A stretch of DNA of 64,000 bases, from assembly GCA_039906565.1 (NCBI GenBank), contig CM078459.1:18723066-18787065 (forward strand). The letters are read 5' to 3'. The stretch is from Aegotheles albertisi. Lineage: Eukaryota. Below are positions 29,126-51,103 of the stretch, one piece after another; the first letter of the stretch is position 1; the number at the start of each line of letters is the position of its first letter. The notes under the pieces were generated by a model, which was not told where the DNA came from, ran no database searches, and saw only the letters and a program-made list of their open reading frames with translations. A program made the translations under genes and the position numbers.

Positions 29126-30241
29126 GTAAATGTGTTATCATAAGATACTTCTGTTGCTAAAGTTTATTTTAATCAATGAATGCTTGCAATGTCAAATATT
29201 TGCTGCTTACTTCTGTGTTAATATTTTCTCATACAGCCTTTTTCTTTTGTTGAGAATTTAAGTTATGTTGTACGTCGCTGCAAATAAGATTACTGTCTCA
29301 TCAAGTCTTACCTGCCTTTAGCAGGGAACCTGGTAGTTGGGGAAGGCTCCTGAGATTGATTTTGTGTATGTTTACACTACACTTTGCAGCATAGCACAGG
29401 TCCTCAAGCTGTAACTTAACAGCCTGGATTCCAGAAGCTGTGTGAACCTGAGGGTCACATTAATTAAAACTTAAGGATCCTTTCTAAAAACAGAACCAGT
29501 TGTACTCAGTGCAGCACCACAGGAACACATGTAGCCATGCTGTTGCTTGAAACACAAACTGGTGGTGGTGTTCTGTGCTGTGTAGGTGTAACATTTTCCA
29601 CAGTAACTTCTCATACAGTGATGCTTTAAACGTGTGTTTTGCACTCATTTGAAAAAATTAAGGAGCATCAGAAGAGGCATTTTGTGAATAGAAAACTGCT
29701 TACCTCAAAAGTAAGAGTGGCTTTTTAATTGTACAGATAATCCAGGACTGGATTACCATTCGTTCTCTCCACCATCATCAGATTATGCCCATGGGTCTTG
29801 TTAGTAAGAAGCAGGACTGGCATGTTCTATACTTCTGGTTTGCATCATCTGCTTTCTAAGGCTAAGAGCCCTCGAACAGCTATTTAACCATGTCAGAATA
29901 AAAAATGAGGGGTGGAGGGGAGCTATCTCAGCATTTCTAGGTTCATAAATCCAAATGCACCAACATAACTGAAGCAGGGGAAAAGAAATTTTGTTATTCA
30001 AATAATAGCCTCTGTAAAGTTGTTCACACTCCTTTGAGCACAGCTGTGGGTTTTGTCCTCTCAGTATGCTGTGGTAGTAATTTGTTGTGTGATAGAGAAT
30101 TCAGTGCCAAGGCCACTTGTTGAATTGTGGTAGTTTGTTTGAATTTTGTTTACCTATTCAGGCATGCTTTGAATTACCATTCCTTACAGATAACACTAAG
30201 AGATTCCTTTTCTATTTCATTGTGTTTCTTGTCTGTAACAG

Positions 30242-30360
30242 GTAAGGCTCTATGATTCTGGAGCTGAAAAAACAGTGGATATCTGCAATCTAAGAAAACT
30301 TCAGGAAAATATGAAGAGAATTAAGGCATTAGGAGTACAATGTACCTTGACAGATATAAG
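30242..30360 (+). CDS. RNF17: RNF17 exon, Tudor C core second half (VRLYDSGAEKTVDICNLRKLQENMKRIKALGVQCTLTDI-)
   Basis: gtaacag|gta acceptor, ag|gtagtc donor; 'V.fiDyG..e.v....L' equivalent; phase 0->2. Confidence 0.7.
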
Positions 30361-31148
30361 GTAGTCTTTCCCTTATACTGAACAGCAGTATTAGAAACCT
30401 AAAAATGACATAACAATATTTTCTTGTGTTAGCATTGATTATCTAAGTTTTGATGTGGTTTGCTTTTTAAATAAAGAAGAAATGGGTGGGCAGCTGTGAT
30501 TTGTTTTATAAGGAGGCTTTTTTCTAAGGGTTATGCTACATACATACCAGTAAAACAGAAGCTGTGCTATAGAAAGAAAAAATATTTATAAGGATGAATT
30601 ATAAAACACTGGACAGATGATAGAAGTTTTTCTTATTTCACTGAATGCCTTTTTCCTTGACTCAGAATTTGAGATGAATCGGATCTCATGAAAATGCACA
30701 GGAAGTCTCTCATTTCTAGTCTGTAAAAAAGAGAGAGAACCAGGGTATTCTCCCATGCATTTGTTTGTGTGCTGTCTATACTGCGAAGAAAAAATAATCA
30801 TGTTTGTAATACCCATTCCTTGAGTGGATATAAAAAGCCCGATTTGCAGATGAAGTATGGAATTTCCTTTGTTCTGTTAAGATAGGTGTCATACTTGTGT
30901 AGCTCATGATCCTCCTCAGTTTTGAAGTTTTGGGGTTATATTTATTAGTTCTTCCTGTCATATAGACCTAGAGATGAATAACCATTTCTTTTTACTGTTA
31001 ACTGTAATGGAGATTGTCTTTCTTCCATGACACTTCAAGCAGTGTCAAAAAAAAATCAAAATCTCAGTAAAGGAAAGGGTTTGTGGTAAAGCTCAGGAGA
31101 TGACAACTTATTTTGTACTAACAGAGGCTGTAATTTGTTCTTTGTTAG

Positions 31149-31239
31149 ACCAACAGGCGGAAGCTCGCAGTGGACAGCAACAGTGTGTGAATGTTTATCC
31201 TATTACCTAACCGGGGCACAAGCAAAAATCGTCATACAG
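31149..31239 (+). CDS. RNF17: RNF17 exon ([30 protein letters not shown])
   Basis: ttgttag|a acceptor, cag|gtttgt donor; phase 2->0. Confidence 0.55.
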
Positions 31240-32087
31240 GTTTGTAATCAAAACCAGTGATATTTGTAAAATTTCTGTCAGTTTGTCTGTTAATACAATT
31301 TTTTTTCTGAATATTTTCACTCTTCAAAGAAGTTCTGAGTGGAACTTGCTTAGATTGCTGTTTGCTGTAGGGAAAAATATGCTTTTTCTTTTTTTCTGCT
31401 TCATTTTCATTATTCACTGGAGCATTAGAGCAGTTTGGCAACCCGGTGTGAAAAGAAAGCAGTCTTAGATATATTTAGTTACTGAAGAACAATATTTATA
31501 TCTTTGGGATCACTGGATGCTGACAGCTTTTACGGATAGATGAGCAAGATGTGCATGTTCTTGATGAGAATAATTTCAGCAGCTACCATGTTAGTTTTCA
31601 AGCCTCAGAAACTGAAAGAATTAGTCCGATGCTGTACATCATTTGTGATTGATTTCTTCCACTGGTAAAAAAACAAAACAACTGAATTATTATGAGGGTT
31701 TGATTTGTGTAGGGTCTGTTGGCAGCTGCCAGTGAGGTTTTACAGTGTGTCTAAGATAAAAGCACTGATGAGCAAAGTTATTTATGAATGGGTTTAAAGC
31801 TCTTGCTAGAGGAAAACAAGTATTTGGCAGTTAATTCTAATAAAACAGCTAAGGGAAGAAGCGAGGTTTTATTCTGTTATTTTTTTTTTTTAATGTCATG
31901 CCTAGAACAGTTAGTGAAATGTTGGGAACTGTGACATGGATTAAATGAATTTTGTGTCTTCTGACGTGGGCATCAATTGTTCGGTGACATCTGATTTGCA
32001 GTCAGTACCAGTAAAACGAAAAATATGCCTGTAGTTTAGAGGAAATGTGTATTGTAATATGTTGTCCAGCTCTCTAATTTTTTCCAG

Positions 32088-32203
32088 GAAAGTGATGCGG
32101 CTTGTGCATTGCCTGTGAAAATTTTTTGCAAAGATGAGACAGGACAAGAGTTTGATATTTCAGAACTCCTTGTTCAGAAGGGTCTGGCTTTTAGAAACAG
32201 AAG
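32088..32203 (+). CDS. RNF17: RNF17 exon (ESDAACALPVKIFCKDETGQEFDISELLVQKGLAFRNR-)
   Basis: ttttccag|gaa acceptor, ag|gtttgg donor; Tudor C-terminal 'dI...Lv..GLA' motif; phase 0->2. Confidence 0.6.
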
Positions 32204-32525
32204 GTTTGGATACTCTTATATTCTTTCAGACTCTCATATTCACATCGTGATAAGCTAATAAGTAAAACAAAAATTTGGATTGTCCTCTACAGTGTATGTA
32301 GCAACAGAACTCCATCTTTAGTGAACATACCCAAATAGAACATTATTAATTGTATCCACTGCACATTTCAGCTCTCTGAGTTGGTAGATGAGATGTTTGA
32401 CAGTACTTTAATAAGCATTTGCCGTCTTTGTGTGTTTGGTTTTTTATTTCTATTATTTTATTTTTTTGCACTTTTCAAGTTCTTTGTCAGTTAATATGTT
32501 GATGTGATTTGATTGAATCTGCTAG

Positions 32526-32833
32526 AACTGCTACAGCTGCTGAGGCTTGCTCAGTCTCCAGTGAACATCCGAAAGTACATTTCGAGCAAGAGGACACACT
32601 ACTGAATGGTTGTAATTCAGAAACTGCTCATGCAAAAAGCAGCGCTGCTCCAGAGGAAAACATCACTGTTCCAGAGAGTGAAGAAAAATCATGTGAAACA
32701 TACAAGGCATTGCCTCACTCCGAAGTGGATGAAATATATAAATCCCCCGTTATACCTGAAGCAAAAATTTTTCAAGCTGTAGTAAGTTGCGTTGGACGTG
32801 ATGGAACTATATATATCGTACCAAAATCCTGTG
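32526..32833 (+). CDS. RNF17: RNF17 exon, acidic linker + Tudor D N-terminal extension (-TATAAEACSVSSEHPKVHFEQEDTLLNGCNSE...IFQAVVSCVGRDGTIYIVPKSC-)
   Basis: tgctag|a acceptor, tgtg|gtaaga donor; matches ORF 32509..32847 frame; phase 2->1. Confidence 0.7.
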
Positions 32834-33969
32834 GTAAGATTACATAGAAGAAATTACATTTACGTCTATGAAACTATATAGCTTTGGTATATCAGAATAT
32901 ATGATATACATGTTGTAGTATACATGTTCTGTATCAGAACACAGTTCTGGAAGATTTCTTTTGGGGAGGATTGCTGTTGGGGGTGATGAGGCCTTGGTGA
33001 GCGGGCGAGGGGTGTGTGCCCATGCCATGCTGGTCCCGCAGCTTCCCAGCGGAGATAGCCCACATCCCCATGAGGTGGGGACCTGTCCTCAAACCCATTG
33101 AATTGTGTTTTCCTGTCCTTCCACCTGCCCGAGAAACCCAGAATGCCCAAGCGCTTGGACAGATGGGTTACTTGCCTCTCTTCTCTAGGCAGTATTGGGT
33201 AAAGCAGCAAATGCTTTCTTCTGTAATGTTGAGATTGTGATACATTTTACTAATAATAATGAAAGTACAGTCCTAAAGATTCTCAGAAGTTAGCCTAGTT
33301 CTCAAATACTACTGGATTTTTTTCCTTTGTTGTGAGCTCAGTACCCAGTTTTCTTGGAGAAATGTTTCAGTATGAGAACATTTTTCTGTTATTTTTTTTA
33401 ATTCTACAAATACATTTAAGTACGCTTAGGTACTTAGTTGTGTAAGTCCATTAAGTACATTTAAATATGTTCATGATCATGTCATGAAACTTTGAAATTC
33501 AAAGTACAGTAACCCCACTTGCTCAAGACTGTATTCTTGCAATTGTTGCTGTAGACTGTACTCATAGCAGAGGGTCTTCTGGACACCTGTTCCGTGCTGT
33601 TTCATGGTGTCCTACCACTGCCTCTGGGAATCAGTTGTCTTGTTGATGGAAAGATGCTTGTACTACTGCTGCCAATGTGTCAGTTGCAGAATTTATAGAC
33701 CCTTCTTCTGTGAGATTTGAATCCAGAATTACTAATGGCTTCACGACTGGAAATGCAGTTTACTTTTTGTTTAATTAGTAAGTTGTTTGTACATACTAGA
33801 TGTTGACCATACATATTGTTTCAGTGTTTTTGGAGCAGCACACGTCTTTTGGGTTTATACGTGTCTTCATCTGAATCTGCTGGGTTTTAGTGATTGAAAT
33901 AGTTTGCGCTGTGTTACAGACTGTTTTGAATTTATTTTACTTTTTTTTTAATTCTCCCCCCACCTCCAG

Positions 33970-34133
33970 AAATTGAACTAAACAAATTGATGGATGAAAT
34001 ACAAAGTAACTTCAAATGCCTTGGTCTTCTGGAACCATACAGGTGGAAAAAGGGAGAAGCTTGTGTTGTAAGAGGATCGGATACGCTGTGGTATCGAGGT
34101 ACAGTTTTAGAACTCGGTGTCAATGCTCTTAAG
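33970..34133 (+). CDS. RNF17: RNF17 exon, Tudor D core first half ([55 protein letters not shown])
   Basis: cctccag|aa acceptor, aag|gtaagt donor; textbook Tudor 'G..C.v...D.lWYRg.V'; in ORF 33987..34223 frame; phase 1->0. Confidence 0.8.
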
Positions 34134-34929
34134 GTAAGTTTGATTATATGTTGTGTGTTAGTGAGTGGACACGTGCATATGTATGTTTTTTTCCAAAAAA
34201 AGGCCATTAACCTAATTCTCTAAAGTAAATTTATGGTCATAGCTTTTTTTGTTCAGCTGACTTGACTATGCAGATGCTCATTCTACTTCAAGGTGTGATA
34301 ACTGTCCTGATTTTAACATTTATTTTAAAGATTTCTGTCTGCCTATTTCAGTTGTCACAATTTTTCCCATAGTTTTCCTGGTAATGATAATTGTTCTTAA
34401 GTAAAAAGTTACCTTGATCACATGTAAGTAATCCCTTTTAGATTTTTATTTCTTTGGTTGTTGTTATCTTATGTGGATGCTTTGAAAATACTTGGGTTTA
34501 GCTTCCTCCCACTCAAGTAGTGGCTGTCTTTGTTTTGAATTCTTTCTGCTGCACAGGTATAGAGCTACTTTTTCTAATTAGCAGTTAATTCTATCTAAAC
34601 TCTTGAGTCTGCTTATGCTTTTTAAATGTAGATTTGCAAGTCTGACACTATCGTAGTTCACAAACTTCTTACTTCTTTCAGTTGTAAACTGCTGTAGGTA
34701 ATTGTAGAAAAGGCAGAATCTCTTGCAAGAGAAGTTTAGAAACGACTTCTAATCTGCCATGCCAGTTTTTTAATCCTTTCCCTCATTTCCACTTTGTCAC
34801 ATCACATACTTAGCAGAAAACCACTATTTTTTTCCCCAGAAAAGCAAATGCTGTAAATGAACACTTTCTCTTAATAAACTTGACTTAAAAAACAGGAATT
34901 ATTTCAGGAAAGCTTTTCTTTTCATGTAG

Positions 34930-35049
34930 GTACAGTACATAGACCGTGGTCACATAGAGACGATTCCTCATTGTCATCTGTACCCAACTACATTGTATAC
35001 TGATATTCCTCCATTTTGCATACCATGTCAGCTCTACAAGACAACGCCT
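34930..35049 (+). CDS. RNF17: RNF17 exon, Tudor D core second half ([40 protein letters not shown])
   Basis: tcatgtag|gta acceptor, cct|gtgagt donor; 'V.YIDrGn.E.i....L' Tudor signature; phase 0-0. Confidence 0.75.
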
Positions 35050-35519
35050 GTGAGTAATGGTAAATTTGAAGATGTTTTAGTAGATGGTGACTCAATTGGA
35101 TACGCTGTTTAGTCATGCAAAGGTTGAGACTAGTTGCGGGTATTTTCTCTTGCCTATGAGGATTCAGAGAACAGCTGATGAGGATCGGTTCAGCAAGACA
35201 GCCTTTTATCAGGAAATTTGAGGTTCCTTTATGAAGGGACCTTGCTTCAAAAGCAGCTGTTACTGGAATTAAATCTTTGTGAGACAGGACACTGCAGTGG
35301 TTGGCAGGATGATACTCTGGAGTGGTAGTTCATTTTGCAATAGCAGCAACAAGAAGTAAGGCCTGGATTTCTTAATGCAAATTGGCCAGAAAACTAAATC
35401 TTCAAATCCTGCAAAAGTGTTTCTGTCATTCTAATCTTAGCTGCGTAGGAAACAGTCTGTTATGCTAAACCAATACAAGTGAATTGTTTTAAGGTTTTTT
35501 GTTAGAAAGTAATTGATCC

Positions 35520-36318
35520 CACAGGCTTGAGAGGTGGGCCCATGCAAACCTCATAAAGGTTAACAAGGCCAAGTGTGAGGTCCTGCACCTGGGTCAGGGC
35601 AATCCCAAGCTCAGATACAGGCTGGGTGGAGAATGGATTAAGAACAGCCCTGAGGAGAAGGACTTGGAGGTCTTGGTTGATGAAAAAATCAACATGAGCC
35701 AGCAGTGTGCACTTGCAGCCCAGAAAGCCAACGGTATCTTGGGCTGCATCAAAAGAAGTGTGGCCAGCAGGTTGAGGGGGTGATCGTCCCCCTCTACTAC
35801 TTCGCTCTCAAGAGATCCCAACTGGGTTATTGTGTCCAGTTCTCGAGTCTCCAACATAAAGACGTGGAACTCTTGGAGAGAGTCCAGAAGGAGCCACGAA
35901 GATGATCAGGGGGCTGGAGCACCTCTCTTATGAATACAGGCTGAGAGACTTGGGATTGTTCCACCTGGAGAAGGCTCCAGGGAGACCTCCTAGCAGCCTT
36001 CCAGTACCTGAAGGGCCTACAGGAAAGCTGGAGAGGGACTTTCTACAAGGACATGGAGTGATAGGATGAGGGGGAATTGATTCAAACTGCAAGAGGGTAG
36101 ATTTAGGTTAGACATTAGGAAGAAATTCTTCACTATGAGCGTGGTGAGACACTGGCACAGGTTATCCAGAGAGGTGGTGGATGCGCCCTCCCTGACAGTG
36201 TTCAAGGCCAGGTTGTATAGGGTTCTGAGCAGCCTGGTCTAGTGGGAGATGTCCCTGCCTATGGCATGGTGGGTGGAACTAGGTGATCAACCCAAACCGT
36301 TCTATGATTCTGTGATAC
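35520..36318 (+). mobile_element. CR1 fragment (RT C-terminal region + 3'UTR)
   Basis: Encodes CR1 ORF2 tail (..[29 protein letters not shown]..); ends with ..ccaaaccgttctatgattctgtga. Confidence 0.8.
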
Positions 36319-36910
36319 GTAATTAATGTCATCACATACTGTCACATCTTAATCAAATTTGAATGGTGTATTTAGTAAATGTGAATTACTGAAATGACTG
36401 GCTTACTTTTATAGTTATTTTTAAAGAAAACCTTTTTATTTCTGGAAGCAATTCAACTGATAGATTAAGAAAGACAGGCTTATAAGCCTCTGGGTTGGGA
36501 GGCGAACAGATGTTGTAGGCAATAAAAGAAGTATTTGAAGTATCCTGTGTTTTCTGTTGTATGTTAAGTTATCATAGAGTGTAATTCTGTATGTTTGGGT
36601 TATGCTTCGGGTAATTGCACACACGTGTTATTATTAGGTGTGTGTTAAAGGTTAGTCTTGGGAAGCAGCATTTCTTTCTGAGCCACTTCTAGATTTGAAA
36701 ATTGCTGGTGAGGATTGTCCCACGGTAAGTTTCAGTGTGTCAAATACTAGATAATGTTTAAACTGTGTAGACATATCAAACTAACGATGTGTGTTTTCAA
36801 AGAAGTTTTTCGATGATAGGCATGTATTTTAATCTTACCATGTTAAGAACAGTAAGAGTATCACTTGTTAGCATCTTAATGTTGTGGGTTTCTTGCGTTT
36901 TGCCAAATAG

Positions 36911-36991
36911 GTTGGAAATTTTTGGCAGCAGGATGCAGTAGATTGCCTTCAAGGACTGCTTACAAATGAAGAGGTTGAAATACATGTTCAG
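36911..36991 (+). CDS. RNF17: RNF17 exon (VGNFWQQDAVDCLQGLLTNEEVEIHVQ)
   Basis: ccaaatag|gtt acceptor, cag|gtagct donor; 81 nt, phase 0-0. Confidence 0.55.
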
Positions 36992-37292
36992 GTAGCTTAA
37001 TTTATTCATAGATGTGGACTGAGGCTTACTTTTTGTTCTCTTCCTTTTTTGTTTTTTAACTTGCATTAAGAATAATAAGTGAAGGAGTAAATGTATTTCT
37101 TAGCCAGAGTCCAAAGCTAAAGTTAATTCTCCTGTGACTTGATTATCGTTATAGTCTTCAGGCCTTAAATGTTTCCTTCAGAATTATTAATGGTTTTTGG
37201 TCCTGTTTGTATTGTGTGTTGCCATTCTGACAAGCAACCTACCTACCGACAACATAAATTGTAAATTCAATTATAAGTGATTAAAATTTGCC

Positions 37293-37365
37293 ATGGCAGG
37301 GGCATTGGAACTAGATTATCTTTAATGTCCCTTCCAACCCAGACCATTCTATGATTGTGATTTTT
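37293..37365 (+). mobile_element. Short CR1 terminal fragment
   Basis: ggcattggaactagattatctttaatgtcccttccaacccagaccattctatgattgtga; sits immediately 5' of the long CR1. Confidence 0.6.
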
Positions 37366-37599
37366 TTTAATTTTTATTCTATGATAATTAAGTACGGACA
37401 TGCCTAAATCAATATATTAACATTATAGGGGAACACATCATCTGTATTGTCTGAAAACCTGCAATTTCAGGTAGTTTGATTAATGATAAATAGTGAAAGA
37501 GAGGGGATTATTGTGGAGTGCACAAGTGTGGGATAATGTTTGGGTGTTAGGCCGAGTAGTCGGTGCTGCCATTCCAGAGATACAAAACCAGTAAAGATG

Positions 37600-40500
37600 G
37601 CTGTTAACATCAGTTGTGACAAAAATCACATGATGTGAAGGGGGAAGGGGAGACAACTGGGTCTGTTAGGGATGAACCCAAGAATAACATGCTAGGGCCT
37701 GAAGAAAGATGGTCTAGGGAGGATTTTCAATCATTGAAGAGAAGGGATAGTTGTTTAGGCCCTGACCACAAGGCCTCCTGCCTCCCAGGGGTCCCACCAG
37801 TGCGCTCTGCTTGCTCTCTGAAATGCCTGTACACCAACGCACGCAGCATGGGGAATAAACAGGAGGAGTTAGAGGTCTGTGTGCGGTCTAAAGGTTATGA
37901 TCTGGTGGCAATTACAGAGACATGGTGGAACAGCTCACATGACTGGAATGTGGCCACGGCTGGCTATGTCCTTTTTAGGAAAGATCGGTCGGTGAGGCGA
38001 GGTGGTGGAGTTGCTCTCTATGTGAGAGAGCAACTAGAATGTATTGAGTTTTGTCCAGGGGCTGATGAGGGGCAAGTTGAAAGTCTGTGGGTGAGAATTA
38101 AGGGGCAGGCTAGCATAGGTGATACAGTTGTGGGGGTCTATTACAGACCTCCTGATCAGGACGAAGGAGTTGATGAAGCTTTCTACAGGCAGCTGAAAGC
38201 AGCCTCGCAACTACAGGCCTTGGTCCTCATGGGGGATTTCAACTACCCGGATATCTGCTGGAAGACTTACACAGCCAGCCATTCACAGTCTAGGAGGTTC
38301 CTCCAATGCATTGATGATAACTTCTTAATGCAAATGGTGGACAAGCCAACTAGGAGAGGAGTGCTGCTGGACCTTGTACTCACCAACAAGGAGGGTCTTG
38401 TTGAAGCAGTGATGGTCAACAGCAGCCTTGGCTGCAGTGATCACGAGATGGTGGAGTTCAGGATCCTGTGTGGGAGGAATAGAGTACCTAGCAAGACCAG
38501 AACCCTGGACTTCCGCAGGGCCAACTTTGGCCTCCTCAATCGATTGTTAAGGGAAGTCCCATGGGACAGGGTGCTAGATGGTAAAGGGGCTCAAGATAGT
38601 TGGTCAACATTCAAGGACCACTTCTTGCAAGCTGAGGATCAGAGTGTCCCAATGGGTACCAAATCAAGTAAGGGAGCTAGGAGACCAGCATGGTTAAACA
38701 AGGAACTGCTGGGCAAACTCAAGTGGAAAAAAAGAATCTATGGATCATGGAAGGAGGGGCTGGTCGCTTGGGAGGAATATAGGACGGTTGTCAGAGGATG
38801 TAGAGAGGCAATTAGGAAAGCCAAGGCCTCCTTGGAACTTAACCTTGCAAGTCAGGTCAAGGATAATAGAAAGGGCTTTTTCAAATACATAGCAAATAAA
38901 ACTAACACTAGAGGCAATATAGGCCCATTGATGAATGAGGTGGGTGCCCTAGAGACAGAGGATATAAAGAAGGCAGAGGTGCTGAATGCCTTCTTTGCCT
39001 CTGTCTTTACTCCTGCAGGCTTTCCCCAGGAGCCCCTGATCCCTAAAGCCCCAGAAGAAGTCAGGATAAAGGAGGAGATTGCCTTGGTAGATGAGGATTG
39101 GGTTAGGGATCAGTTGAGTAATCTGGACATCCATAAATCGATGGGTCCGGATGGAATGCACCCAAGGGTGCTGAGGGAGCTGGCAGAGGTCATTGCTAAG
39201 CCACTCTCCATCATCTTTGGTAAGTCATGGGCAACAGGAGAGGTGCCTAAGGACTGGAGGAAAGCAAATGTCACTCCAGTCTACAAGAAGGGGAAGAAGG
39301 AGGACCCGGGTAACTATAGACCGGTCAGCCTCACTTCCATCCCTGGAAAGGTGATGAACAACTTGTTCTTGGCACTATCTCTAGGCATATCAAGGATGAG
39401 GGGGTCATTAAGAGCAGTCAACATGGCTTTAGCAAGGGTAAGTCATGTTTGACCAACCTTATAGCCTTCTATGAGGAAATAACTAGGTGGATAGATGATG
39501 GTAGAGCGGTGGATGTGGTTTATCTCGATTTCAGTAAAGCATTTGACACTGTCTCCCACAGCATCCTCGTAGATAAGCTGATAAAGTATGGGTTTGATGA
39601 TCAGGTAGTGAGGTGGATCAAGAACTGGTTAAAGGGAAGAAGTCAGAGAGTTGTAGTCAATGGGACAGAATCTAGTTGGAGGACTGTGACTAGTGGAGTG
39701 CCTCAGGGGTCGGTACTGGGACCGGTGTTGTTCAATATCTTCATCAGCGACCTGGATGAGGGTACAGAATGTACCTCAGCAAGTTTGCTGATGGCACTAA
39801 ACTGGGAGGAGTGGCTGACACACCAGAGGGTTGTGCTGCCATTCAAAGAGACCTTGATAGGCTGGAGAGTTGGGCGGGGAGAAACTTAATGAAATTCAAC
39901 AAGGGCAAGTGCAGAGTTTTGCATCTGGGGAAGAACACCACCATGCACCAGTACAGGCTGGGGGCTGACCTGCTGGAGAGCAGTGTAGGAGAAAGGGACC
40001 TGGGAGTCCTGGTGGACAGGAGGATGACCATGAGCCAGCAATGTGCCCTTGTGGCCAAGAAGGCCAATGGCATCCTGGGGTGCATTAGAAAGGGGGTGAT
40101 TAGTAGGTCAAGAGAGGTTCTCCTCCCCCTCTCTTCTGCCTTGGTGAGGCCACATCTGGAGTATTGTGTCCAGTTCTGGGCCCCACAATTCAAGAAGGAC
40201 AGGGAACTGCTTGAGAGAGTCCAGCGCAGAGCCACTAAGATGATTAAGGGAATGGAACATCTCCCTTATGAGGAGAGGCTGAGGGAGCTGGGTCTCTGTA
40301 GCTTGGAGAAAAGGAGGCTGAGGGGTGACCTCATCCATGTTTACAAATATGTAAAGGGTGAGTGTCAGGATGATGGAGCCCAGCTTTTGTCAGTAATGAC
40401 TAATGATAGGACAAGGGGCAATGGTTGCAAACTGAAGCATAGGAGGTTCCATGTGAATATCAGGAGGAACTTTTTCACTGTGAGAGTGACAGAGCACTGG

Positions 40501-40680
40501 AACAGGCTGCCCAGAGAGGTTGTGGAGTCTCCTTCACTGGAGACATTCAAAACCCGCCTGGATGCGTTCCTGTGTGATGTACTCTAGGTGACCCTGCTCT
40601 GGCAGGGGGGGTGGACTAGATGATCTTTAGAGGTCCCTTCCAACCCCTTAGATTCTGTGATTCTGTGAAAAATGGGAGTG
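37600..40680 (+). mobile_element. Near-full-length CR1 element (ORF2 endonuclease + reverse transcriptase + 3'UTR); 5' truncated around the ORF1/ORF2 boundary
   Basis: ORF-track frames 37635..39452 (605 aa, APE-type EN start LKCLYTNARSMGNKQEELE, RT motifs), 39449..39889 and 39769..40587 together span the ~2.9-kb ORF2; terminates in canonical CR1 3' end and (ATTCTGTG)2 at 40650-40672. Confidence 0.9.
37635..40587 (+). pseudogene. CR1 ORF2 (EN-RT) disrupted by two frameshifts (~39.4 kb and ~39.8 kb)
   Basis: Three successive overlapping frames are needed to read EN-RT continuously; the FADDT/RT motif region continues in frame C to ..[17 protein letters not shown]. Confidence 0.8.
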
Positions 40681-40800
40681 TATCTTTGACGAATGAGTAT
40701 AGTGCATATAAGAATGACAGGTTTTAATTTCCTGGGGATTATTTCTAAAACCTGAGTCCCGCTGTTGCTGTTATAATCTTACTTTGTCTTGTGTAAATAG

Positions 40801-40926
40801 GAATTACCAGATGACCCATGGGGCAAATTGTCCATCAACCTGTATTTTGGTGGAATGTCACTTTCTTCCTTCATGGCATACCAGAAGTACTGTGTTGCTG
40901 AATTTTGTCTGGACATACCAGAGATG
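40801..40926 (+). CDS. RNF17: RNF17 exon ([42 protein letters not shown])
   Basis: gtaaatag|gaa acceptor, atg|gtgaga donor; 126 nt, phase 0-0; lies just 3' of the CR1 insertion. Confidence 0.6.
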
Positions 40927-41439
40927 GTGAGATTTTTGTGTATTTGTGTCTTTTGCTGTTGTTACTCTGACATTAAAAAGATTACTCAGTTGCTTGTTGT
41001 GACCTTTGATTTGTTACTACTTTTTATGTTTCTCTACGGTTTTGTGGTGTAAACAGCAGTAGCATGTGTGTACAGCTCGTAGCATAGGAAATGTAGATAT
41101 GATGTATTGATAAGATTGTATGGAATAGCAGATTGCCAGGTTTGTTCTTGGACTCCTTACTGAGGTATGTGCAGTGCTCAGTTGGGAACGAGCTGTAATT
41201 TAAGTTGAATGTTTAGAGTCAGGTGGAGTCAGGTGTCAATGTTCCTGATTGCTTTGCAGAAATCTGGCATTCAGTTTGTATGTATGATAGAGTCAGACAT
41301 CCTTTCTTTACTGGTATTTATCAAGCTCTTCTTTTTAATCTTAGGAGTACATACTTTAAATGGAAAAGCTGTTTTTTTCTAGTTAAGTCTGAGGAGCATA
41401 ATGGTTTTTTATACTGTATCCTGTTCAAATTGACAATGT

Positions 41440-42000
41440 CTGCAGTCTTTCCCTCATCAATCAGGCGGGTCACCTTGTCATAGGAGGAGATCAGGTTGGT
41501 CAAACAGGACCTGCCCTTCATGAACCCATGCTGACTGAGCCCAGTTCCCTGGTTTTCCTGCACGTGCTGTGTGACCACACTCGGGATGTTCTGCTCCATG
41601 ACTTTCCCTGGGACTGAGGTCAGACTGACAGGCCTGTAGTTTCTGGGGTTCTCCCTCCTGCCCTTTTTTGTAGAGAGGCGTCACGTTGGCCAACCTCCAG
41701 TCCTCTGGATGCTGCCCACTAGACCAGGACTGCTGATAAATGATGGAGAATGGCTTGGCGAGCTGCTCTGCCAGCTCCTTCAGCACTCTTGGGTGGAACC
41801 CATCTGGCCCCATAGCATTGTGGAGCAGGAAGTCACTAACTGGTTTCTCCTGTATTATGGAGATTTCAGTCAGCTCCCCATCTCTGTCATCCAGCTCAGG
41901 GGACTGAGTACACTGAGGATGGTTGATCTGGCTATTAAAGACTGAGGCAAAGGTGACATGAAGTACCTCAGGCTTTTGTTTGATCTTTGCTCACCAGGTT
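41440..42000 (-). mobile_element. CR1 internal (RT-coding) fragment, minus orientation
   Basis: Minus ORFs 41478..41813 / 41321..41599 encode CR1 RT segments (MGPDG.HPRVLKELAE..PLSII...PEDWR.ANVTP.YKKG). Confidence 0.75.
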
Positions 42001-42119
42001 TCCCCCCATACCCAGTAAAGGATGGAGGTTCTCCCTGGCCCTTCTTTTATTGCTAATATATTTGTAAAAATGTTTTTTATTATCTCTTATGGCAGTGGCC
42101 AGATTAAGTAATAATCCCC

Positions 42120-42645
42120 CTGTACACAGCATTAGTGAGGCCGCACCTCAAAATACTGTGTTCAGTTTTGGACCCCTCACTACGAGATGGACATTGATGC
42201 GCTGGAGAGGGTCCAGGGGAGGGCAGTGAAGCTGGTGAAGGGCCTAGAGCACAGGTCTTATGAGGGGCTGCTGAGGGAGCTGGGACTGTTTAGTCTGGAG
42301 AAGGCTCGGGGGGACCTTATTACTCTACAACTGCCTGAAAGAAGGCTGGAGTGAGGGCGTGGCTGATCTCCCAAATAACAAGTGATAGGACAAGATGTAA
42401 CAGCCTCGGACTGCTCCAGGGGAGGTTCAGACTGGATGTTAGGAAGAATTTCTTAACAGAAGGGGTTGTCAGGCACTGGAACAGGCTGCCCAGGGAAGTG
42501 GTGGAGTCGCCATCCCTGGAAGCATTCAGAAGAGGTGTAGATGAGGCCCTTAGTGACATTGTTTAGCAGTGGACTTGGCGGTCCTGGAGTAACAGTTGGA
42601 CTTGATGATCTTGAAGGTCTTTTCCAACCTAGTTGATTCTGTGTC
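42120..42645 (+). mobile_element. CR1 3' fragment
   Basis: ..[12 protein letters not shown].. coding tail plus terminus (gggaagtggtggagtcgccatccctggaagcattcagaag...). Confidence 0.8.
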
Positions 42646-43099
42646 AGATCATGCAGGGGGAAGAAAGGGTCAGAGTTTATTGTTTTGTTTTGCAGTTACA
42701 TACCTGATTGCTTCCACTTTTCTTTTTGCTCTGGGCATAATGAAAACTGTTCATCAAATAGATGTGTAAAATTAAAATGTGTATTAGAGAAATTACAGCT
42801 TTTGTTATGTATCATATTAAAGTACAGGAAAGAATTCATGACCAGCTGAGCTATACATCCTTTTAAAGGCATAATTTAATGCAGTAAGGTTTATTTTGTC
42901 ATGAACCAAATGAGTTCTGTAAACTGTAAAATAAGTAATTTCTGGAAAAAGACACACTGGGGCATGCTGTGCTGGTGAGACAGCAGCTGTCTGTACTTCG
43001 CAAAATCTTAACTTTTTGAAAGAATGATAATTCTGGTGACTTAAGAAGTTGCATTGCCCTTTCTCTTAAGAGATAACTTGCTCTGGCAAACTGCAGTAA

Positions 43100-43325
43100 C
43101 ATTGAGCATGGCATTCAGGTTAAGGAAGAACTTCTTTACTGTGCGAGTTCCTGCACACTGGAACAGGTTGCCCAGAGAGGTTGTGGAGTCTCTGTCACTG
43201 GAGATACTCAAGAACCGTCTGGCTGCAGTCCTGTGCAATGTGCTCTAGGATGACCCTGCTTGGGCAGGGGGATTGGACCAGTTTGACCCACTGTGGTCCT
43301 TTCCAACTGATTCTGTGATTCTATT
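43100..43325 (+). mobile_element. CR1 3'-end fragment
   Basis: cactggaacaggttgcccagagaggttgtggagtctctgtcactggagatactcaag...gattctgtgattcta. Confidence 0.8.
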
Positions 43326-43619
43326 AACTTGTGCTAACTAATTGCTATTGTTTTAGTTTTTTCTAAGTATTTTCTCTCTTTAAAGTGAATTCCACCTGTA
43401 ATGTATTTTTGAATTAACGGCAATAGTTACCAAGTCAGTATGTTAGGACCATTTCAAAGATATATTCTTTATATTTTAAGTGTTAATTAACTAATTCTGT
43501 TATCTTTTAGCTAAAGCTTTTTTAAAAACCTAATAACTATTGAAAGGAAATGTTGATTAATGGTTTTTTTGCATTTTGTTAATAAATACGTTGTTTGACT
43601 AAAGTCTGTCTCTGTCTAG

Positions 43620-43730
43620 GAACTACTTCAAGGAGATGTTCCTGTTTCACCTTCGTACAGGTTGCCACCACTCCCTACTCCAGGAGATACTTTTCCTGTC
43701 AGAATTACCCATTTGGTGTCCCCTAGGGAG
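43620..43730 (+). CDS. RNF17: RNF17 exon, Tudor E N-terminal extension (ELLQGDVPVSPSYRLPPLPTPGDTFPVRITHLVSPRE)
   Basis: tgtctag|gaa acceptor, gag|gtatgt donor; 'VrItHlvSP' motif; phase 0-0. Confidence 0.65.
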
Positions 43731-44357
43731 GTATGTTTTGTAAACATCTCATGTAATGTTGCAGGCAGGAAGTGTTCCGGTCCCGTCATGCTGGTGAATA
43801 GGAAATAATGGCTAACAATTTTATGTAATATAAAAAGTATTAGTAAAGTTGCAAAATGCGACTGAGCATTTGTGCAGTGCAACTGTCTGAACTGATGATC
43901 CAGTTATAACTGATGATCCAGTTATACATTAGGTGAATGGAATGTCTTTGCATAGCAAACAAAGCACTGTTTCCAAAGTTCTTCTTTTATTAACTTTAAT
44001 CTTTGGTTTGGTATATTACGAAGTGAATTTATTTGCCAAGTAGCAGGAGAGAGGAATTCTGAAAGACACAGCTGTGAAATTTTACATGGGTATATTATCT
44101 AGTGTGTGCGTTCCTTTCATTCTTACATTTTAACATTGAAAAGTCGTGTTAATCAATCACGACTCTTCTGCTTTTGGAAAAAACCTGTAAATATGAAATT
44201 ATTCATAAATTGAGAAAGAAGAAAGGGGAACAAGGATGTACTGAACCTTTCAAAGCTGGGAACAAGCAATCTTCTAATAATCTTCGATCACCGATGGAAT
44301 TTGAATGTTTTAAGTTGTCTGCAAAAGTTGTAATATGAGAGCCTTTTCTTTGAGTAG

Positions 44358-44514
44358 GTTTATATTTGCCTTGAGCCTTCCAAGAACCTTATGAAGCAGT
44401 CTACCACAGAGGGAGATGCCAGCTGTGACTCGGAGTTTGGGAGCCTTGATGAAGCCCTGAAATGGTGTAATAAAAATGTGGAGTCTCTTCCCCTTCTAAC
44501 ACACTTCCGAACAG
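44358..44514 (+). CDS. RNF17: RNF17 exon (VYICLEPSKNLMKQSTTEGDASCDSEFGSLDEALKWCNKNVESLPLLTHFRT-)
   Basis: ttgagtag|gtt acceptor, acag|gtacat donor; continues 'FYiq' of extended Tudor; phase 0->1. Confidence 0.6.
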
Positions 44515-44689
44515 GTACATTAGTGTGTTTATTTTCCCTGTTGTTGCATGTGGATGTACAAAAAGCCTGAAATTATTTCTTCAGAATAGGAATAATTATA
44601 TTTCTGCGTATCTTTAAATAAAACTTTTGGAGAGTAAGGAGTAACACTACGCAATAATCATACAATACACTATAGTCAGGAGTGTGGAA

Positions 44690-45045
44690 AAAAAGAGGCT
44701 CGGGAAACCTTAACACTCTCTACAGCTACCTGAAAGGAGGTTATAGCAAGGTGGGTGTTGGTCTTTTCTCCAGGTAACAAGCGATAGGGCAGAGATGAAA
44801 TGGCCTCAAGTTGTGCCAGGGGAGGTTTAGGTTGGATATTAAGAAAAATTTCTTCACTGAAAGGGTTGTCAGGCACTGGCACAGGCTGCCCAGGGAAGTG
44901 GTGGAGTCACCATCCCTGGAGGTGTTTAAAGACGTGTAGATGTGATGCTTAGTGACATGGTTTAGTGGTGGAGTTGGCAGTGCTGGGTTAAGTGTTGGAC
45001 TTGATTTTAAAGATCTTTTCCAACCTAAATGATTCTTCTGCACTA
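44690..45045 (+). mobile_element. CR1 3' fragment (same subfamily as 295-880 and 1548-1910)
   Basis: ctacagctacctgaaaggaggttatagcaaggtgggtg...ggcctcaagttgtgccaggggaggtttaggttggatattaag. Confidence 0.8.
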
Positions 45046-45587
45046 CCTTTGTCATTCTGTTCCACTGGAAAATGATGGAAAGAACTCAGACTTCTGATGC
45101 CTGTTGAAGTTAATGAGCTGAGTTTAGATTGCATATGGCAAAAAATAAAACTCTTTTCCCTTAAGGTGACTGTCACTGAAGCTGCAACTGAAAATCTTGC
45201 TATTAAATACTCAAAAGGCACAACTTATGTACAGAAAATCACTTTGCCAAGAGTTAGAAATTATGTGAACCCTGAAAAGTATTACTTCACTTTAATTCTG
45301 GATTTCTCCATTTAGGCAAAAGTTTGGATCACTATTTTAACCAAGCAGTTTTCTGTTAATTCTCATCATTGCCATGTGAGGTAGAGAAACTTCACGTAAC
45401 TTGCATACTAATGATGATGAATTGAGAGTTCAGAGGGAATTGCAGGATGCATAGAACAAAATAGTAGCATGAATTAGAGAAGAAAAAAACTTGGTCACAA
45501 AGTAAAATGGATTTTCAATTTCCATTGGTTTGTATTGCACTGTGAGTATATTGGGGTGTTTTGTGGTTGTTTTTTTTCTTTTTACAG

Positions 45588-45723
45588 ATATGCCTTGTCT
45601 TGTAGAATACCAGGATGGTTTATGGTATAGAGCAAAGCTCCTTTCCATTGAAGAATTTAACCCTGTTAAGGTTCTGGTTCAGTTTGTTGACTATGGTAGT
45701 TTTTCAGTTGTCCCAACAAGCAG
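45588..45723 (+). CDS. RNF17: RNF17 exon, Tudor E core ([45 protein letters not shown]-)
   Basis: ttttacag|at acceptor, ag|gtaaat donor; near-perfect Tudor core (C...DG.WYRA.I...........V.FVDYG..e.V); phase 1->2. Confidence 0.85.
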
Positions 45724-46974
45724 GTAAATACGTAAGAAGAAAAAATGCATGTGAAATGCCTATATATGTACTTGTGAAATATGTACTTAAGAATAAGTGT
45801 ATATATTTTTACATTTGTTATTACTTACCTTTATATAACTGTAGATATATGATAATTTAGCATTAGATTTCAGTTGGGAGAGAAAGTTGGTTGGCTGCTT
45901 AAATAATTACTGTCTGCAGGGTCTAGGGTGTGGCACCTGCTTCTCTCTCAGGTTGTTCTGAGAATCCCATTATTATAATACCAGATTTCTCTGTCATCTT
46001 CAGTTACTTAGTCTGTGAAATAGGTTCAGGCTTATAATCTGATTTTGTACCCAAAAAGCTTACACAGAGCAGGTGCTGAGCCCTCCAGGTGTACAATCCT
46101 CTCATCCTGTGCCACTGCAATCTGCACAGAAACAGCTGGGCAATAAGATAAGGGAGTATCTGAGTGGGACACATCTTGTGCTGCTTCTGTGGAAACTGAA
46201 GTTCAAATCCCTGTTCTGCCTGGTGCTGAGTCACTCTAGGACCTGCTTCTGTGCTGATACACACACGTCAGCTAAGTGTCCCAAACACCTCAGGCTTTTG
46301 GGGTCCCCTAGGCTTGTCTGAATTTTCTCTTTTGAAGTACTTTCATTTTTTATATGTACTGCTTACTCACCTTGACTTGCTCTTGAGCTCACTGGGGGAT
46401 CTATCTAAGGCTACTGTCTGAAGATGAGACAAAACAGGGATTTGAACAGATTTCCTGCTTCATACTGTTAGGGTCATGGGAGAGTGTTTTGTTTCAGGGT
46501 TGCGCTTCTTGCTCTGCTTCCCCATTTCTTTGCTTCTGGGATAGAAAGAAGAGTGGGGAGATAATATTAAATCAAGCTACCCATTTCCAGTAGTGCAGCT
46601 AGAGCACATCCAGGTGTGAAGCACTGGGACAACAAAGATCTGTCATTTTCCAGACACACCAGACTTGGAGCTCACATCGGTGCCTGGCCCTTGAGACTCC
46701 CCCCCCCCAAGCACTATAATGGGGAGGCAGCGTGCCTGCTGGGCTGACCTGCTTTTTGCCTGTTACTGTGCTGAAATCCTGTAGAGGGCCAAGCCCTGCC
46801 TGATGAATTGTTTGGTCTCACACCGGCACGTTCTTGTAGAGCAGGGACACTGATCCCAGTTTCCACACTGTGAATCTTCTGCATGAACCATTAAGCTGTC
46901 CTTATGTCCACGCTGACAGTTGAGCTTGACAGGAGGATTGTTGCAGGCAAACATATGTTTCATTTTTGTTCTAG

Positions 46975-47164
46975 ATTGCGTCACATACCTTATCATCTGC
47001 TGAAGTTTCCTGTTCAGTCAGTACGAGCTCTGTTGGCTGGATTTAAACCTGCTTTATATGACAGAAATGTGGAAAGAATTCCTTACTGCCCAGAATGGAG
47101 TGTGGAGGCATTGTGGGCTATGGTGGAGTGTATTGAAGGAAAACAGCTCTCTGCTTCCATGCTT
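46975..47164 (+). CDS. RNF17: RNF17 penultimate exon (-LRHIPYHLLKFPVQSVRALLAGFKPALYDRNVERIPYCPEWSVEALWAMVECIEGKQLSASML)
   Basis: ttctag|a acceptor; ctt|gtgaga donor upstream of in-frame stop; matches ORF 46904..47185; Tudor 'lP.qA..C.LaG.kP' motif; phase 2->0. Confidence 0.7.
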
Positions 47165-47536
47165 GTGAGAAACTTTTTTTCTTAGTTTTTGCTCAGCCTA
47201 AAATTCTTACTAGCACTCTTGACTATAACTTCTTAAGTATTTGTTTTACTGTGAACCCTCATAATTCAAAACTGGGAGCAATTCACCAAATTCACTGTGA
47301 AGGAATGCTGATGAAGTGAGAAAATCACGTGGTGCTCCTCTTAATCCTGCAAACAAAGTTTCTGAGCATTCCTGTTACTTTAAAAACAGTTTCCTTCACT
47401 TAAAACCAGAAATATTCTTCATATGTTCACAGTTGCATTTAGGCAGTGAGTACAGCCAGTAAGATAACTTATAATATTGGTTAGCTTTAGATTTAAATCT
47501 GTTACTATCAAAACTTTGTCAACTTCCATTTTTCAG

Positions 47537-47635
47537 GCTCTTTCACCAGCAGTCACCATTTCCTTGTATGACGAGGACAAGAAACTAGTTCATATGAAAC
47601 TGGTAGAAATGGGACTTGCAGAGTTGGATGAGTGA
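47537..47635 (+). CDS. RNF17: RNF17 terminal coding exon (ALSPAVTISLYDEDKKLVHMKLVEMGLAELDE*), stop TGA 47633-47635
   Basis: tttttcag|gct acceptor; 32 codons to TGA; Tudor C-terminal 'v.L.d......v.LVe.GLA' pattern; 3'UTR follows (AATAAA at ~48658). Confidence 0.65.
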   Translation, partial: ALSPAVTISLYDEDKKLVHMKLVEMGLAELDE

Positions 47636-48799
47636 TACGTAAGTATAGTGAATATGAACTACAAATTCATACCATTGCAAAGGAATTATTTCTGAAGTTC
47701 TAAGCAAAGTCTAAACTGTCGGTAATGTTGATAACTAGATTTAAAAAAAAAATTCCTTCTGTCCCCACTCCCACTCTTTTAATGAAATGAAAGCTGTTAA
47801 AGTGAATTTCATTACATTCACATTACTGAAGCCCACAGTATAGCTCTAAGGAGTAACAGGTACTGAAACAGAGAGCCCTAAGGCGAGGTAGCAGGGCTTT
47901 TGCTGCTGGTAACTGAAGAAGGTAATGTGCAGATGTGTGGCAGTGTACTCTGCCCAGACAATCAAAATTAATTGTTTTTCTTAATTTTCAGCATTTGATC
48001 TCAGTGATGTCCAGTGCCAGTGTTCTCAGACAGATCTATGATAACATAACGGATGTCCATACATCTAGTCAAACATGGAACAGTTGAAATGCAAAGCTTT
48101 ACAGTATGTGTTGTCTACAGAGAATACTGGAGATGGGTTTTCAGATTTCTTGGCCAACTCGGTGTTAAGTCATCCTTTTCCCTCCCATGTAATAAGCACT
48201 CTTCTAATTGATGTTTACAGATACTGTTCCCACACTTTTGAATCTTGAAATAGTTCACTATCTACTTACCTCTTAATCTTTATTGACCTTAGAGCCTTAC
48301 GTATTGTTCTGTCATACCTGTTTTGTAAAAGAGTAGATGGAATTAATGTGTAGTAGTAAAACAGATAAGGTGATGCTGGTCACACTTGTTCCAGAATCTT
48401 GTTAGGGGACTCAGCAGGAAGGTGAGTTTTATTACTGTGAAGTAACCCTTGTTAATACTTAAGGCATATTTGGTGACAGACTTCTCCAGTACTGGAGTTT
48501 GGGATAGCAAGTGTTGAGGGTGGGGGAGTATTTTACTATCTTTGTTCTGGAACGTGTTTGCATTGCTGCTCTGTTTCCTATTTTTGGTCACATTTTGGGT
48601 GTCCTTGCACCTCCTTCCTACTCCTGGAGCTGCTGTGTTCATTTGATACAGCGTTGAAATAAACAGGAGTTTGTTTAGCATGCATCTGAAAGCTTGTTTT
48701 CCTTTACTGTCATAGTATGTGAAGTTTCTTTGAACGTCTCTATTGTACTAGTGTAGTATATCCTTTGCATTTAAACCTCAGTCCCTTTCAGTCTCCCCA

Positions 48800-48920
48800 T
48801 AGGAAAAAAGATTCACAGTGAAGACTCCACCACCTCTCTGGGCAACCATGTCCAGTGTCTGTCACCCTCACAGCAAAAAAAAAAACATTTTTTTGATGTT
48901 CAGAGGGAATCTGTGTTTCA
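48800..48920 (-). mobile_element. Short CR1-derived fragment, minus orientation (in RNF17/CENPJ 3' intergenic region)
   Basis: gattcacagtgaagactccaccacctctctgggcaaccatgtccagtg is the reverse complement of the CR1 ..cactggacatggttgcccagagaggtggtggagtc.. region. Confidence 0.55.
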
Positions 48921-50982: not shown

Positions 50983-51103
50983 CGCTGAACACGAACAATA
51001 GTACCATCTGGAAAAATACTCTCTTCTTGCCCATCCGTAAATAAATTTTTGATAGTTTGATCCGGGAAAGTAATTTCTTTCTTGCCATCAGGATAATGCT
51101 TCT
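50983..51103 (-). CDS. CENPJ: CENPJ G-box exon ([39 protein letters not shown])
   Basis: Minus acceptor cgtttcag|ag, donor cg|gtaagc; TCP10/G-box repeat (DG..e..FPDG); part of ORF 50979..51308(-). Confidence 0.85.

Follow-up and report, generated by a model that had tools for sequence, protein, structure and literature searches.

The RNF17 intron in the 64,000-nucleotide stretch analysed here (the window) carries a CR1 LINE insert that is best explained by recent retrotransposition after the lineage split from Aegotheles bennettii, a reading to which we assign a probability of about 0.9. The insertion is lineage-specific and bears a 6-bp target-site duplication, because the orthologous A. bennettii site is empty and holds a single AAAAAT, a hexamer that stands on both sides of the insert in the window. 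The comparison covers one other genome, with which a fixed lineage-specific insertion cannot be separated from a polymorphic insertion or incomplete lineage sorting. The locus comprises the following features:

36911–36991, + strand: upstream RNF17 exon (VGNFWQQDAVDCLQGLLTNEEVEIHVQ), followed by a donor GT at 36992; 100% identity to the A. bennettii RNF17 protein (P0121)
37294–37359, + strand: older CR1 3' terminus, 79% identical to the insert 3' end (blastn) and shared with A. bennettii
37621–37626, + strand: 5' copy of the target-site duplication, AAAAAT, repeated at 40668–40673
37627–40667, + strand: 5'-truncated CR1 LINE insertion of 3,041 bp, not present in A. bennettii; junctions read from the alignment
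40668–40673, + strand: 3' copy of the target-site duplication, AAAAAT, from alignment to the A. bennettii empty site
40801–40917, + strand: downstream RNF17 exon, its acceptor AG ending at 40800 (tblastn with P0121)
60881–61176: second CR1 copy, of the insert's own apparent subfamily

The sense orientation of the insert relative to RNF17 and its location within an intron of this gene agree with the earlier description, since both flanking exons were confirmed through a database search and tblastn with A. bennettii RNF17. The A. bennettii protein was by far the best RNF17 match, and the window is 98.5% identical to the DNA of this owlet-nightjar. Being closest to A. bennettii on both RNF17 protein and DNA, the host belongs to the owlet-nightjar lineage and not to the galliforms, across which the comparison had originally been proposed. 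The host intron has grown five-fold with the insert, from 762 to 3,809 bp, and the insert 3' end lies 133 bp from the end of the acceptor of the downstream exon (40800).

In the alignment, positions 3198–14869 of the A. bennettii locus (L001) correspond to 25954–37626 of the window, and L001 14864–31821 corresponds to 40668–57615. The empty site reads GTTGTGAC-AAAAAT-GGGAGTG with one AAAAAT only, and no N was found at this site in L001. A CR1 copy had been placed at 37600–40680; the copy is real, but junction alignment sets its limits at 37627–40667. The comparison of orthologous RNF17 introns, originally proposed across galliform assemblies, was run against A. bennettii instead and found the site empty, while the target-site duplication that was to be sought at the 3' end proved to flank the insert on both sides. 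The locus thus presents the hallmarks of target-primed reverse transcription (TPRT), namely 5' truncation, an intact 3' end, the 6-bp AAAAAT duplication and an empty orthologous site. The older CR1 terminus upstream, which falls in a block collinear with L001, exists as had been noted but is not directly adjacent, lying 267 bp upstream of the insert. The target is unique intron sequence at that distance downstream of the old terminus, which rules out the latter as the insertion target and overturns the idea of insertion into or next to a pre-existing CR1. The remaining CR1 copies in the window are short fragments, as had been described, but 12 were detected (65–785 bp) rather than about 14.

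The copy is young, as had been proposed, because A. bennettii has no insert at the orthologous site although its flanks are only 1.5% different. Over 31.6 kb of flanking sequence, divergence is 1.51% and 70 indel events were counted, and the insertion is younger than the split marked by this pairwise divergence. Under commonly used avian neutral rates, 1.5% divergence corresponds to a few million years. For decay along one lineage, the expected upper limits in 3 kb are approximately 23 substitutions, 3.4 indels and 0.9 nonsense changes; with two indels and no stops, the insert ORF2 is consistent with this expectation. The probability of finding no stop falls below 0.05 beyond approximately 3% neutral divergence, and the near-intact ORF2 is simply a sign of recency. 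In the last 295 bp, six changes (2.0%) are private to the insert relative to the second in-window copy and two apodiform copies; post-insertion decay would account for about two, and therefore some of the six represent differences of the source lineage. The CpG observed/expected ratio was considered and rejected as an age proxy, as the value for the insert (0.17) is not above those of the flanks and old CR1 fragments (0.18–0.27).

The insert is an ordinary CR1 LINE, a known kind of element. It resembles avian CR1s in its ORF2 with an APE-type endonuclease and a reverse transcriptase (RT), its conserved 3' UTR, its ATTCTRTG octamer tail without poly(A) and its 5' truncation. Its internal features are listed below:

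37627–37688, + strand: ORF1–ORF2 spacer remnant (DNA alignment to a full-length Mycteria CR1, L002)
37635–39452, 39449–39889 and 39769–40587, + strand: three overlapping ORFs of 605, 146 and 272 aa (ORF list)
37689–40587, + strand: complete ORF2 of 966 codons once two 1-bp deletions are repaired, with a TAG stop at 40585–40587
37881–38444, + strand: AP-endonuclease domain (Pfam PF03372 at aa 65–252, E=4e-13, and PF14529, to aa 255)
39294–39933, + strand: reverse-transcriptase domain (Pfam PF00078, RVT_1, aa 536–749 of the repaired ORF2, E=3e-30)
39356–39357, + strand: frameshift 1, one G missing (ATG/AAC; relatives ATG GAA, VMEQL), the G being present in the swift copy
39773–39776, + strand: frameshift 2, one C missing (ACCTC; relatives ACC CTC, ECT/LSKFAD), the C being present in the swift copy
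39793–39795, + strand: GGC (Gly) codon in the RT catalytic box, turning FADD into FADG with loss of the second Asp (alignment to relatives)
40588–40651, + strand: 3' UTR with the conserved CR1 inverted repeat GGGGGUGGA ... UCCAACCCC (MFE fold; conservation)
40652–40667, + strand: octamer microsatellite tail (ATTCTGTG)x2 without poly(A), read from the sequence

CR1s are LINEs that move by TPRT, are mostly 5'-truncated and dead on arrival, and end in a 3' hairpin and an octamer microsatellite (PMC4316615, PMC8665684). The definition of a "full-length" CR1 by Galbraith et al. 2021, which the insert fits with its predicted hairpin, asks for a length above 2.7 kb, both an endonuclease and an RT domain and, at the 3' end, the hairpin and the microsatellite, with ORF1 not required (PMC8665684). 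The insert falls outside the "intact" class of the same study, its endonuclease and RT being split over three frames by two deletions. Homologues of the ORF2 protein are plentiful, with 586 matches at E<=1e-30 and 60–74% identity to bird and turtle ORF2 over most of its length. The nearest retrieved copies are those of the chimney swift (Chaetura pelagica, L006; 91.1% DNA identity over 2,207 bp) and Anna's hummingbird (Calypte anna, L007; 89.6% over 1,101 bp), to which the C-terminal protein is 88–91% identical. The tail unit is ATTCTGTG in the insert and ATTCTATG in the swift and hummingbird copies. At 19 of 295 terminal positions, both owlet-nightjar-lineage copies share a state that differs from both apodiform copies; on this ground, the insert appears to represent a lineage-specific CR1 subfamily, as judged against the apodiform copies. 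The best long protein match is a kiwi CR1 (Apteryx owenii, P0081), with 74% identity over 72% of ORF2 and 26% of residues different. Kiwi CR1s belong to the CR1-Y family (PMC8665684), which hints at a place for the insert in or near this pan-avian family, as judged from the species of the match.

The three readable frames of 605, 146 and 272 aa were all recovered at the positions originally given, and the presence of endonuclease and RT domains was borne out in the raw ORFs as well as in the repaired frame: without repair, Pfam detects Exo_endo_phos in the 605-aa ORF and RVT_1 in the 146-aa ORF. A conserved endonuclease motif, LKCLYTNARSMGNK, begins at 37818, and the RT domain weakly matches the structures of the L1 ORF2p and R2 RTs. 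With a G added after 39356 and a C added near 39775, in ACC(C)TC, ORF2 reads as a single uninterrupted frame, in which no internal stop codons were found. Exactly two frameshifts had been predicted, and this number stands, since the repaired frame is open and the 2,207-bp alignment to the chimney-swift copy contains only two gaps, which are precisely the two inferred missing bases. Both lie inside the RT domain and in short homopolymers (GG and CCC), and these two 1-bp deletions could in principle be assembly errors. At the glycine of FADG, an Asp is found in 31 of 31 aligned relatives, and the swift and hummingbird copies encode KFADDTKL; retrotransposition competence calls for an intact YXDD/FADD box, in place of which the insert encodes FADG. 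These three ORF2 lesions may go back to the source RNA, to reverse transcription or to the time since insertion. Relative to the swift copy, codon positions 1, 2 and 3 differ by 4.8%, 6.5% and 15.0%, respectively, and the concentration of differences at position 3 indicates that the master lineages were under purifying selection.

The probable ORF2 start ATG at 37689 pairs with the ORF2 start ATG of Mycteria in the DNA alignment. Upstream of it, the G-rich motif GAAGGGGGAAGGGGA at 37637–37651 has a counterpart that follows the ORF1 stop codon in the full-length Mycteria CR1, and AATCACATG is shared with a more distant full-length CR1 relative (L004), where it stands directly after the ORF1 stop. 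The 5' boundary was set by DNA alignment to the full-length Mycteria element; a MAFFT alignment to L004 was uninformative. The truncation point therefore lies approximately at the ORF1 stop codon, and the insert is devoid of ORF1 and the 5' UTR. Consistently, a tblastn search with the L004 ORF1 detected no ORF1 homology in the window, while the same query finds the Mycteria ORF1 (E=2e-30). The 62 residues preceding LKCLYTNARS had no protein-level match among the retrieved CR1 proteins. The absence of ORF1 is expected because the copy is 5'-truncated, and it speaks to completeness rather than to family membership. The earlier wording "nearly complete" thus understates ORF2, whose probable start ATG is present, and overstates the element, from which ORF1 and the 5' UTR are missing and whose RT box is FADG. 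Without ORF1, the 5' UTR or a promoter, and with the FADG box, the copy was dead on arrival and is no longer able to move.

At the other end, the 3' UTR sequence is conserved over four copies (the insert, the second in-window copy, swift and hummingbird), a sample of few diverged copies. The MFE fold pairs the two arms of the inverted repeat with an energy no better than that of shuffled sequences (z=-0.31); the case for the 3' hairpin therefore rests on conservation and the literature. An Rfam scan of 36900–41000 at E<=1 matched no family. The canonical 3' terminus and two-unit octamer tail that had been described are present, and the tail immediately adjoins the target-site duplication. It matches the CR1 octamer motif 5'-ATTCTRTG-3' (PMC8665684).

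These features would be accounted for by TPRT, in an order of steps deduced from the product. The CR1 endonuclease would have nicked the bottom strand at 5'-ATTTTT/GTCAC-3', and the free 3'-OH would have primed copying of the CR1 RNA, starting in its (AUUCUGUG)n tail. Reverse transcription would have spanned about 3 kb and ended near the ORF1 stop codon, and a staggered cut of the second strand would have produced the 6-bp AAAAAT duplication. The product consists of a full ORF2 and 3' UTR without ORF1, 5' UTR or promoter, and was hence dead on arrival. The source subfamily is a CR1 lineage common to owlet-nightjars, swifts and hummingbirds and kept under purifying selection until recently.

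Three other accounts were weighed against recent retrotransposition. The insert might be an old CR1 copy that A. bennettii lost by precise deletion or that its assembly collapsed, given that a single outgroup locus was examined and that this assembly consists of short-read contigs. We regard this as very improbable: the empty site keeps exactly one AAAAAT between unaltered flanks and has no N, precise deletion would need recombination between 6-bp repeats, and a stop-free 2.9-kb ORF is very unlikely to persist past 3% neutral decay. Slightly less credible still is an artefact of the source-genome assembly, in which a CR1 from elsewhere was misjoined into the RNF17 intron. Misassembly is well known at young repeats of high similarity, and the insert was read from the assembly; yet both junctions are clean, both ends agree with the TPRT prediction, including the octamer tail at the 3' end, and the perfect 6-bp duplication, of sequence present once in A. 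bennettii, is not something that a chimeric join would produce.

A further account would make the insert functional now or in the past, as a source element or as a domesticated ORF2, instead of a dead-on-arrival fragment. ORF2 is complete from the probable start ATG to the stop with no nonsense codon, and would form one 966-codon ORF if both 1-bp deletions were sequencing errors. This account is as implausible as an assembly artefact, since ORF1, the 5' UTR and the promoter are all missing, the Asp replaced in the FADG box is kept in all 31 relatives and in the swift and hummingbird copies, and both frameshifts disrupt the RT domain. Moreover, with less than about 0.8% lineage divergence, the youth of the copy accounts for its open frame without recourse to selection. 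Recent retrotransposition of a CR1 copy thus remains the preferred reading.

The insert has features that may bear on the expression of its host gene, and the earlier suggestion of an effect on splicing or polyadenylation is speculative. In mammals, L1 copies inserted into introns in sense orientation are reported to trigger premature polyadenylation and to reduce elongation. The CR1 insert resembles these in being a long LINE in sense orientation within a host intron and in carrying AATAAA twice (at 38895 and at 37854, the latter with GTCTGTGTG about 20 nt downstream), but it is G+C-rich (50%), unlike the A-rich mammalian L1. A candidate effect on RNF17 would follow from the combination of a 3-kb sense LINE, AATAAA with a GU-rich downstream element and a position 133 bp before an exon. 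It is conceivable, though we consider it highly unlikely, that the insertion is both recent enough to be polymorphic and not neutral, and that it might prematurely terminate or mis-splice RNF17. RNF17 is a Tudor protein of the piRNA pathway; if such an effect were true, a retrotransposon would weaken a gene of the very system that restrains retrotransposons.

Owlet-nightjars lie outside the published avian CR1 activity survey, which contains no mention of Aegotheles and in which within-order comparison was impossible for swift and hummingbird (PMC8665684); a literature search likewise found no paper combining Aegotheles and CR1. The insert alone is routine repeat annotation. The value of the locus is modest and lies in its clean presence/absence pattern: the boundaries are exact, the target site is duplicated, and the site is empty in a congener. 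Within Aegotheles, it could be of use as a marker for phylogenetic or population studies. For the biology of these birds, the insertion shows that CR1 retrotransposition in owlet-nightjars, by a lineage that they have in common with swifts and hummingbirds, continued past a split of only approximately 1.5% divergence.

An Aegotheles bennettii contig around RNF17 (L001) is collinear with window positions 22834–57615, with 1.51% substitution divergence and 70 indel events in 31.6 kb. The one large break in this collinearity lies between positions 14869 and 14870, contiguous in L001, where the window carries an additional 3,041 bases. The empty site reads GTTGTGAC-AAAAAT-GGGAGTG in A. bennettii, and the filled site in the window reads ...GAC-AAAAAT-[CACATGATG...ATTCTGTGATTCTGTG]-AAAAAT-GGGAGTG. 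This junction comparison delimits the CR1 insert to 37627–40667 and reveals the perfect 6 bp target-site duplication, AAAAAT, on both sides, for which the original prediction had recommended a search; these bounds fall just inside the predicted 37600–40680. The comparison shows that the insertion either followed the split of the two lineages or was still segregating when they separated, bearing out the proposed recent origin. Elsewhere in the 34.8 kb compared, just one further structural difference of any size was seen, at position 25954/25955, where the window lacks ~76 bp present in A. bennettii (L001 3122–3198).

Per lineage, the flank divergence amounts to ~0.76% substitutions and ~0.11% indel events per bp, corresponding in 3 kb to at most ~23 substitutions, ~3.4 indels, and ~0.9 nonsense mutations. 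The insert ORF2 fits this expectation, with two indels and no stops. An open 2.9 kb frame is improbable (P<0.05) past ~3% neutral decay.

A presumed human RNF17 sequence, used as a lead only, is collinear with ~28 exon-like segments. Most of RNF17 lies inside the window (~28 exons, 8016–47632, + strand), with the C-terminal ...LVEMGLAELDE at 47632. In a database search, the concatenated exons matched RNF17 of more than 100 vertebrates; A. bennettii was best by a wide margin, with ~100% identity to its protein, and the host is an owlet-nightjar instead of the galliform originally assumed. The N-terminal RING-finger exons (approximately the first 200 residues of the presumed human query) were undetected in the window; they may lie upstream, or the human sequence may be wrong there. 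As predicted, the insert is in sense orientation within an RNF17 intron, which measures 3,809 bp in the window versus 762 bp in A. bennettii. Downstream of RNF17, an opposite-strand gene with Tcp10_C (CENPJ-type G-box) repeats occupies ~50250–51700 and beyond (− strand; L001 24451–25894); we take CENPJ to be a neighbour of RNF17 in other vertebrates.

Features of the insert and flanking exons
36911–36991, + strand: RNF17 exon upstream of the insert (alignment to the A. bennettii protein)
40585–40587, + strand: ORF2 stop codon, TAG
directly after the TAG and ahead of the tail, + strand: 3′ UTR, 64 nt
40652–40667, + strand: tail, (ATTCTGTG)2 (sequence reading)
40801–40917, + strand: RNF17 exon downstream of the insert (alignment to the A. 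bennettii protein)

Three overlapping + strand ORFs of 605, 146, and 272 aa span 37635–40587, exactly as predicted. The first carries the AP-endonuclease (EN) domain (Pfam PF03372 and PF14529) and the second RVT_1, confirming the EN and RT content. In the three-frame translation, the frame switches at VM/EQL after 39356 and at ECT/LSKFAD near 39775. With one G and one C put back, the sequence reads as one frame without internal stops, comprising 966 codons from the probable start ATG at 37689, in which Pfam places EN at residues 65–252 and RVT_1 at 536–749 (E=3e-30). The 2,207 bp alignment to a chimney swift (Chaetura pelagica) CR1 copy has only two gaps, which coincide with both inferred missing bases; the two deletions are therefore independently supported, and the predicted two frameshifts are exact. 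The sequence reading shows (ATTCTGTG)2 and no poly(A) at the 3′ end. The 3′ UTR can be folded into the conserved CR1 hairpin, with an energy no better than that of shuffles; no Rfam model for this hairpin was found.

Three Logan contigs (L003–L005; SRR5019252, SRR1984314, and SRR5019262) represent complete CR1-like elements and served as a full-length reference. They encode an ORF1 of at least 398 aa with an esterase-like VVVGDSLLRG motif and, starting 5 nt past the ORF1 stop, an ORF2 of 973 aa, followed by a (ATTCTATG)n tail. A tblastn search with the L004 ORF1, which detects the ORF1 of a full-length Mycteria element, found no ORF1 in the window. In the DNA alignment, GAAGGGGGAAGGGGA (window 37637–37651) immediately follows the stop codon of the Mycteria ORF1, and ATG 37689 aligns with the Mycteria ORF2 start. 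The missing match and these landmarks indicate that the insert is cut off within ~10 nt of the ORF1 stop, and retains a complete ORF2 without ORF1, 5′ UTR, or promoter. The ORF2 Met lies 43 codons upstream of the LKC motif here, and 3–69 codons upstream in other relatives. The insert is in the "dead on arrival" state usual for CR1 copies (PMC4316615), yet is unusually long; in the classes of Galbraith et al. 2021 (PMC8665684), it is "full-length", not "intact". Its RT catalytic box reads FADG (GGC at 39793–39795), whereas Asp occupies the Gly position in 31 of 31 aligned relatives; the swift and Anna's hummingbird (Calypte anna) copies read KFADDTKL. Several of the nine deviations at columns at least 95% conserved are common to a kiwi (Apteryx owenii) protein, such as EGCAAIQ and LPLSSALV. 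These shared deviations are subfamily traits, and the Asp-to-Gly change is private to the insert.

The intact 3′ end, with its octamer tail abutting the duplication, the 5′ truncation, and the short duplication constitute the anatomy that target-primed reverse transcription predicts. Under the established LINE model, the bottom strand would have been nicked at 5′-ATTTTT/GTCAC-3′, and a staggered cut would have generated the short target-site duplication. The older CR1 terminus proposed as the insertion target or neighbour is real (37294–37359; 79% identity to the insert 3′ end) and also present in A. bennettii, but it lies 267 bp upstream; the insert landed in unique sequence, which rules it out as the target.

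The window contains 12 other CR1 fragments, not ~14, all short as predicted (65–785 bp). A second copy of the insert's subfamily, 296 bp long and 5′-truncated, lies at 60881–61176 (+ strand) and ends in ATTCTGTG-ATTCCGTG; all the other fragments show 65–84% identity. In the next RNF17 intron, two old pieces lie head to head, 41330–42114 (− strand) abutting 42108–42643 (+ strand), a structure common to A. bennettii. The inverted piece covers ORF2 residues 400–632 and is joined by its 5′-most end to the direct piece, which extends from residue ~836 to the 3′ end, with ~600 bp missing between them. Twin priming yields such a "5′ inverted / 3′ direct" arrangement for L1, and the pair resembles its product; two independent insertions are the alternative.

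Identity of the insert to relatives
Protein, long matches (Mycteria, ducks, turtles): 60–63%
Protein, kiwi (P0081): 74%
C-terminal third, chimney swift proteins: 90–91%
C-terminal third, Anna's hummingbird protein: 88%
DNA, swift copy, 2,207 bp: 91.1%
DNA, hummingbird copy, 1,101 bp: 89.6%
DNA, in-window 296 bp fragment, 60881–61176 (+ strand), against the insert 3′ end: 93.9%

Differences between the insert and the swift copy amount to 4.8% at first, 6.5% at second, and 15.0% at third codon positions, so much of this divergence built up while master lineages were under selection. Across the terminal 295 bp, both owlet-nightjar-lineage copies agree with each other against both apodiform copies at 19 positions, and private changes number six in the insert and seven in the copy at 60881–61176. 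Taken together, the identities, codon-position pattern, and shared terminal positions point to a CR1 lineage that owlet-nightjars, swifts, and hummingbirds all inherited and that stayed active until recently. In swift and hummingbird, Galbraith et al. 2021 (PMC8665684) found full-length and intact CR1s in large numbers, but within-order comparisons were not possible there; Aegotheles was outside that analysis.

The copy's location is curious, as RNF17 belongs to the Tudor proteins of the piRNA pathway (PMC4511215). An AATAAA at 37854 is followed ~20 nt on by GTCTGTGTG, a second AATAAA lies at 38895, and the next RNF17 acceptor site follows 133 bp past the insert's end. The sense-oriented copy might conceivably disturb RNF17 transcripts. 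The young CR1 copy was correctly observed and essentially correctly interpreted in the original prediction. The insert is a known kind of element of modest interest, whose value is that it records recent CR1 activity in owlet-nightjars through a clean, lineage-specific insertion.
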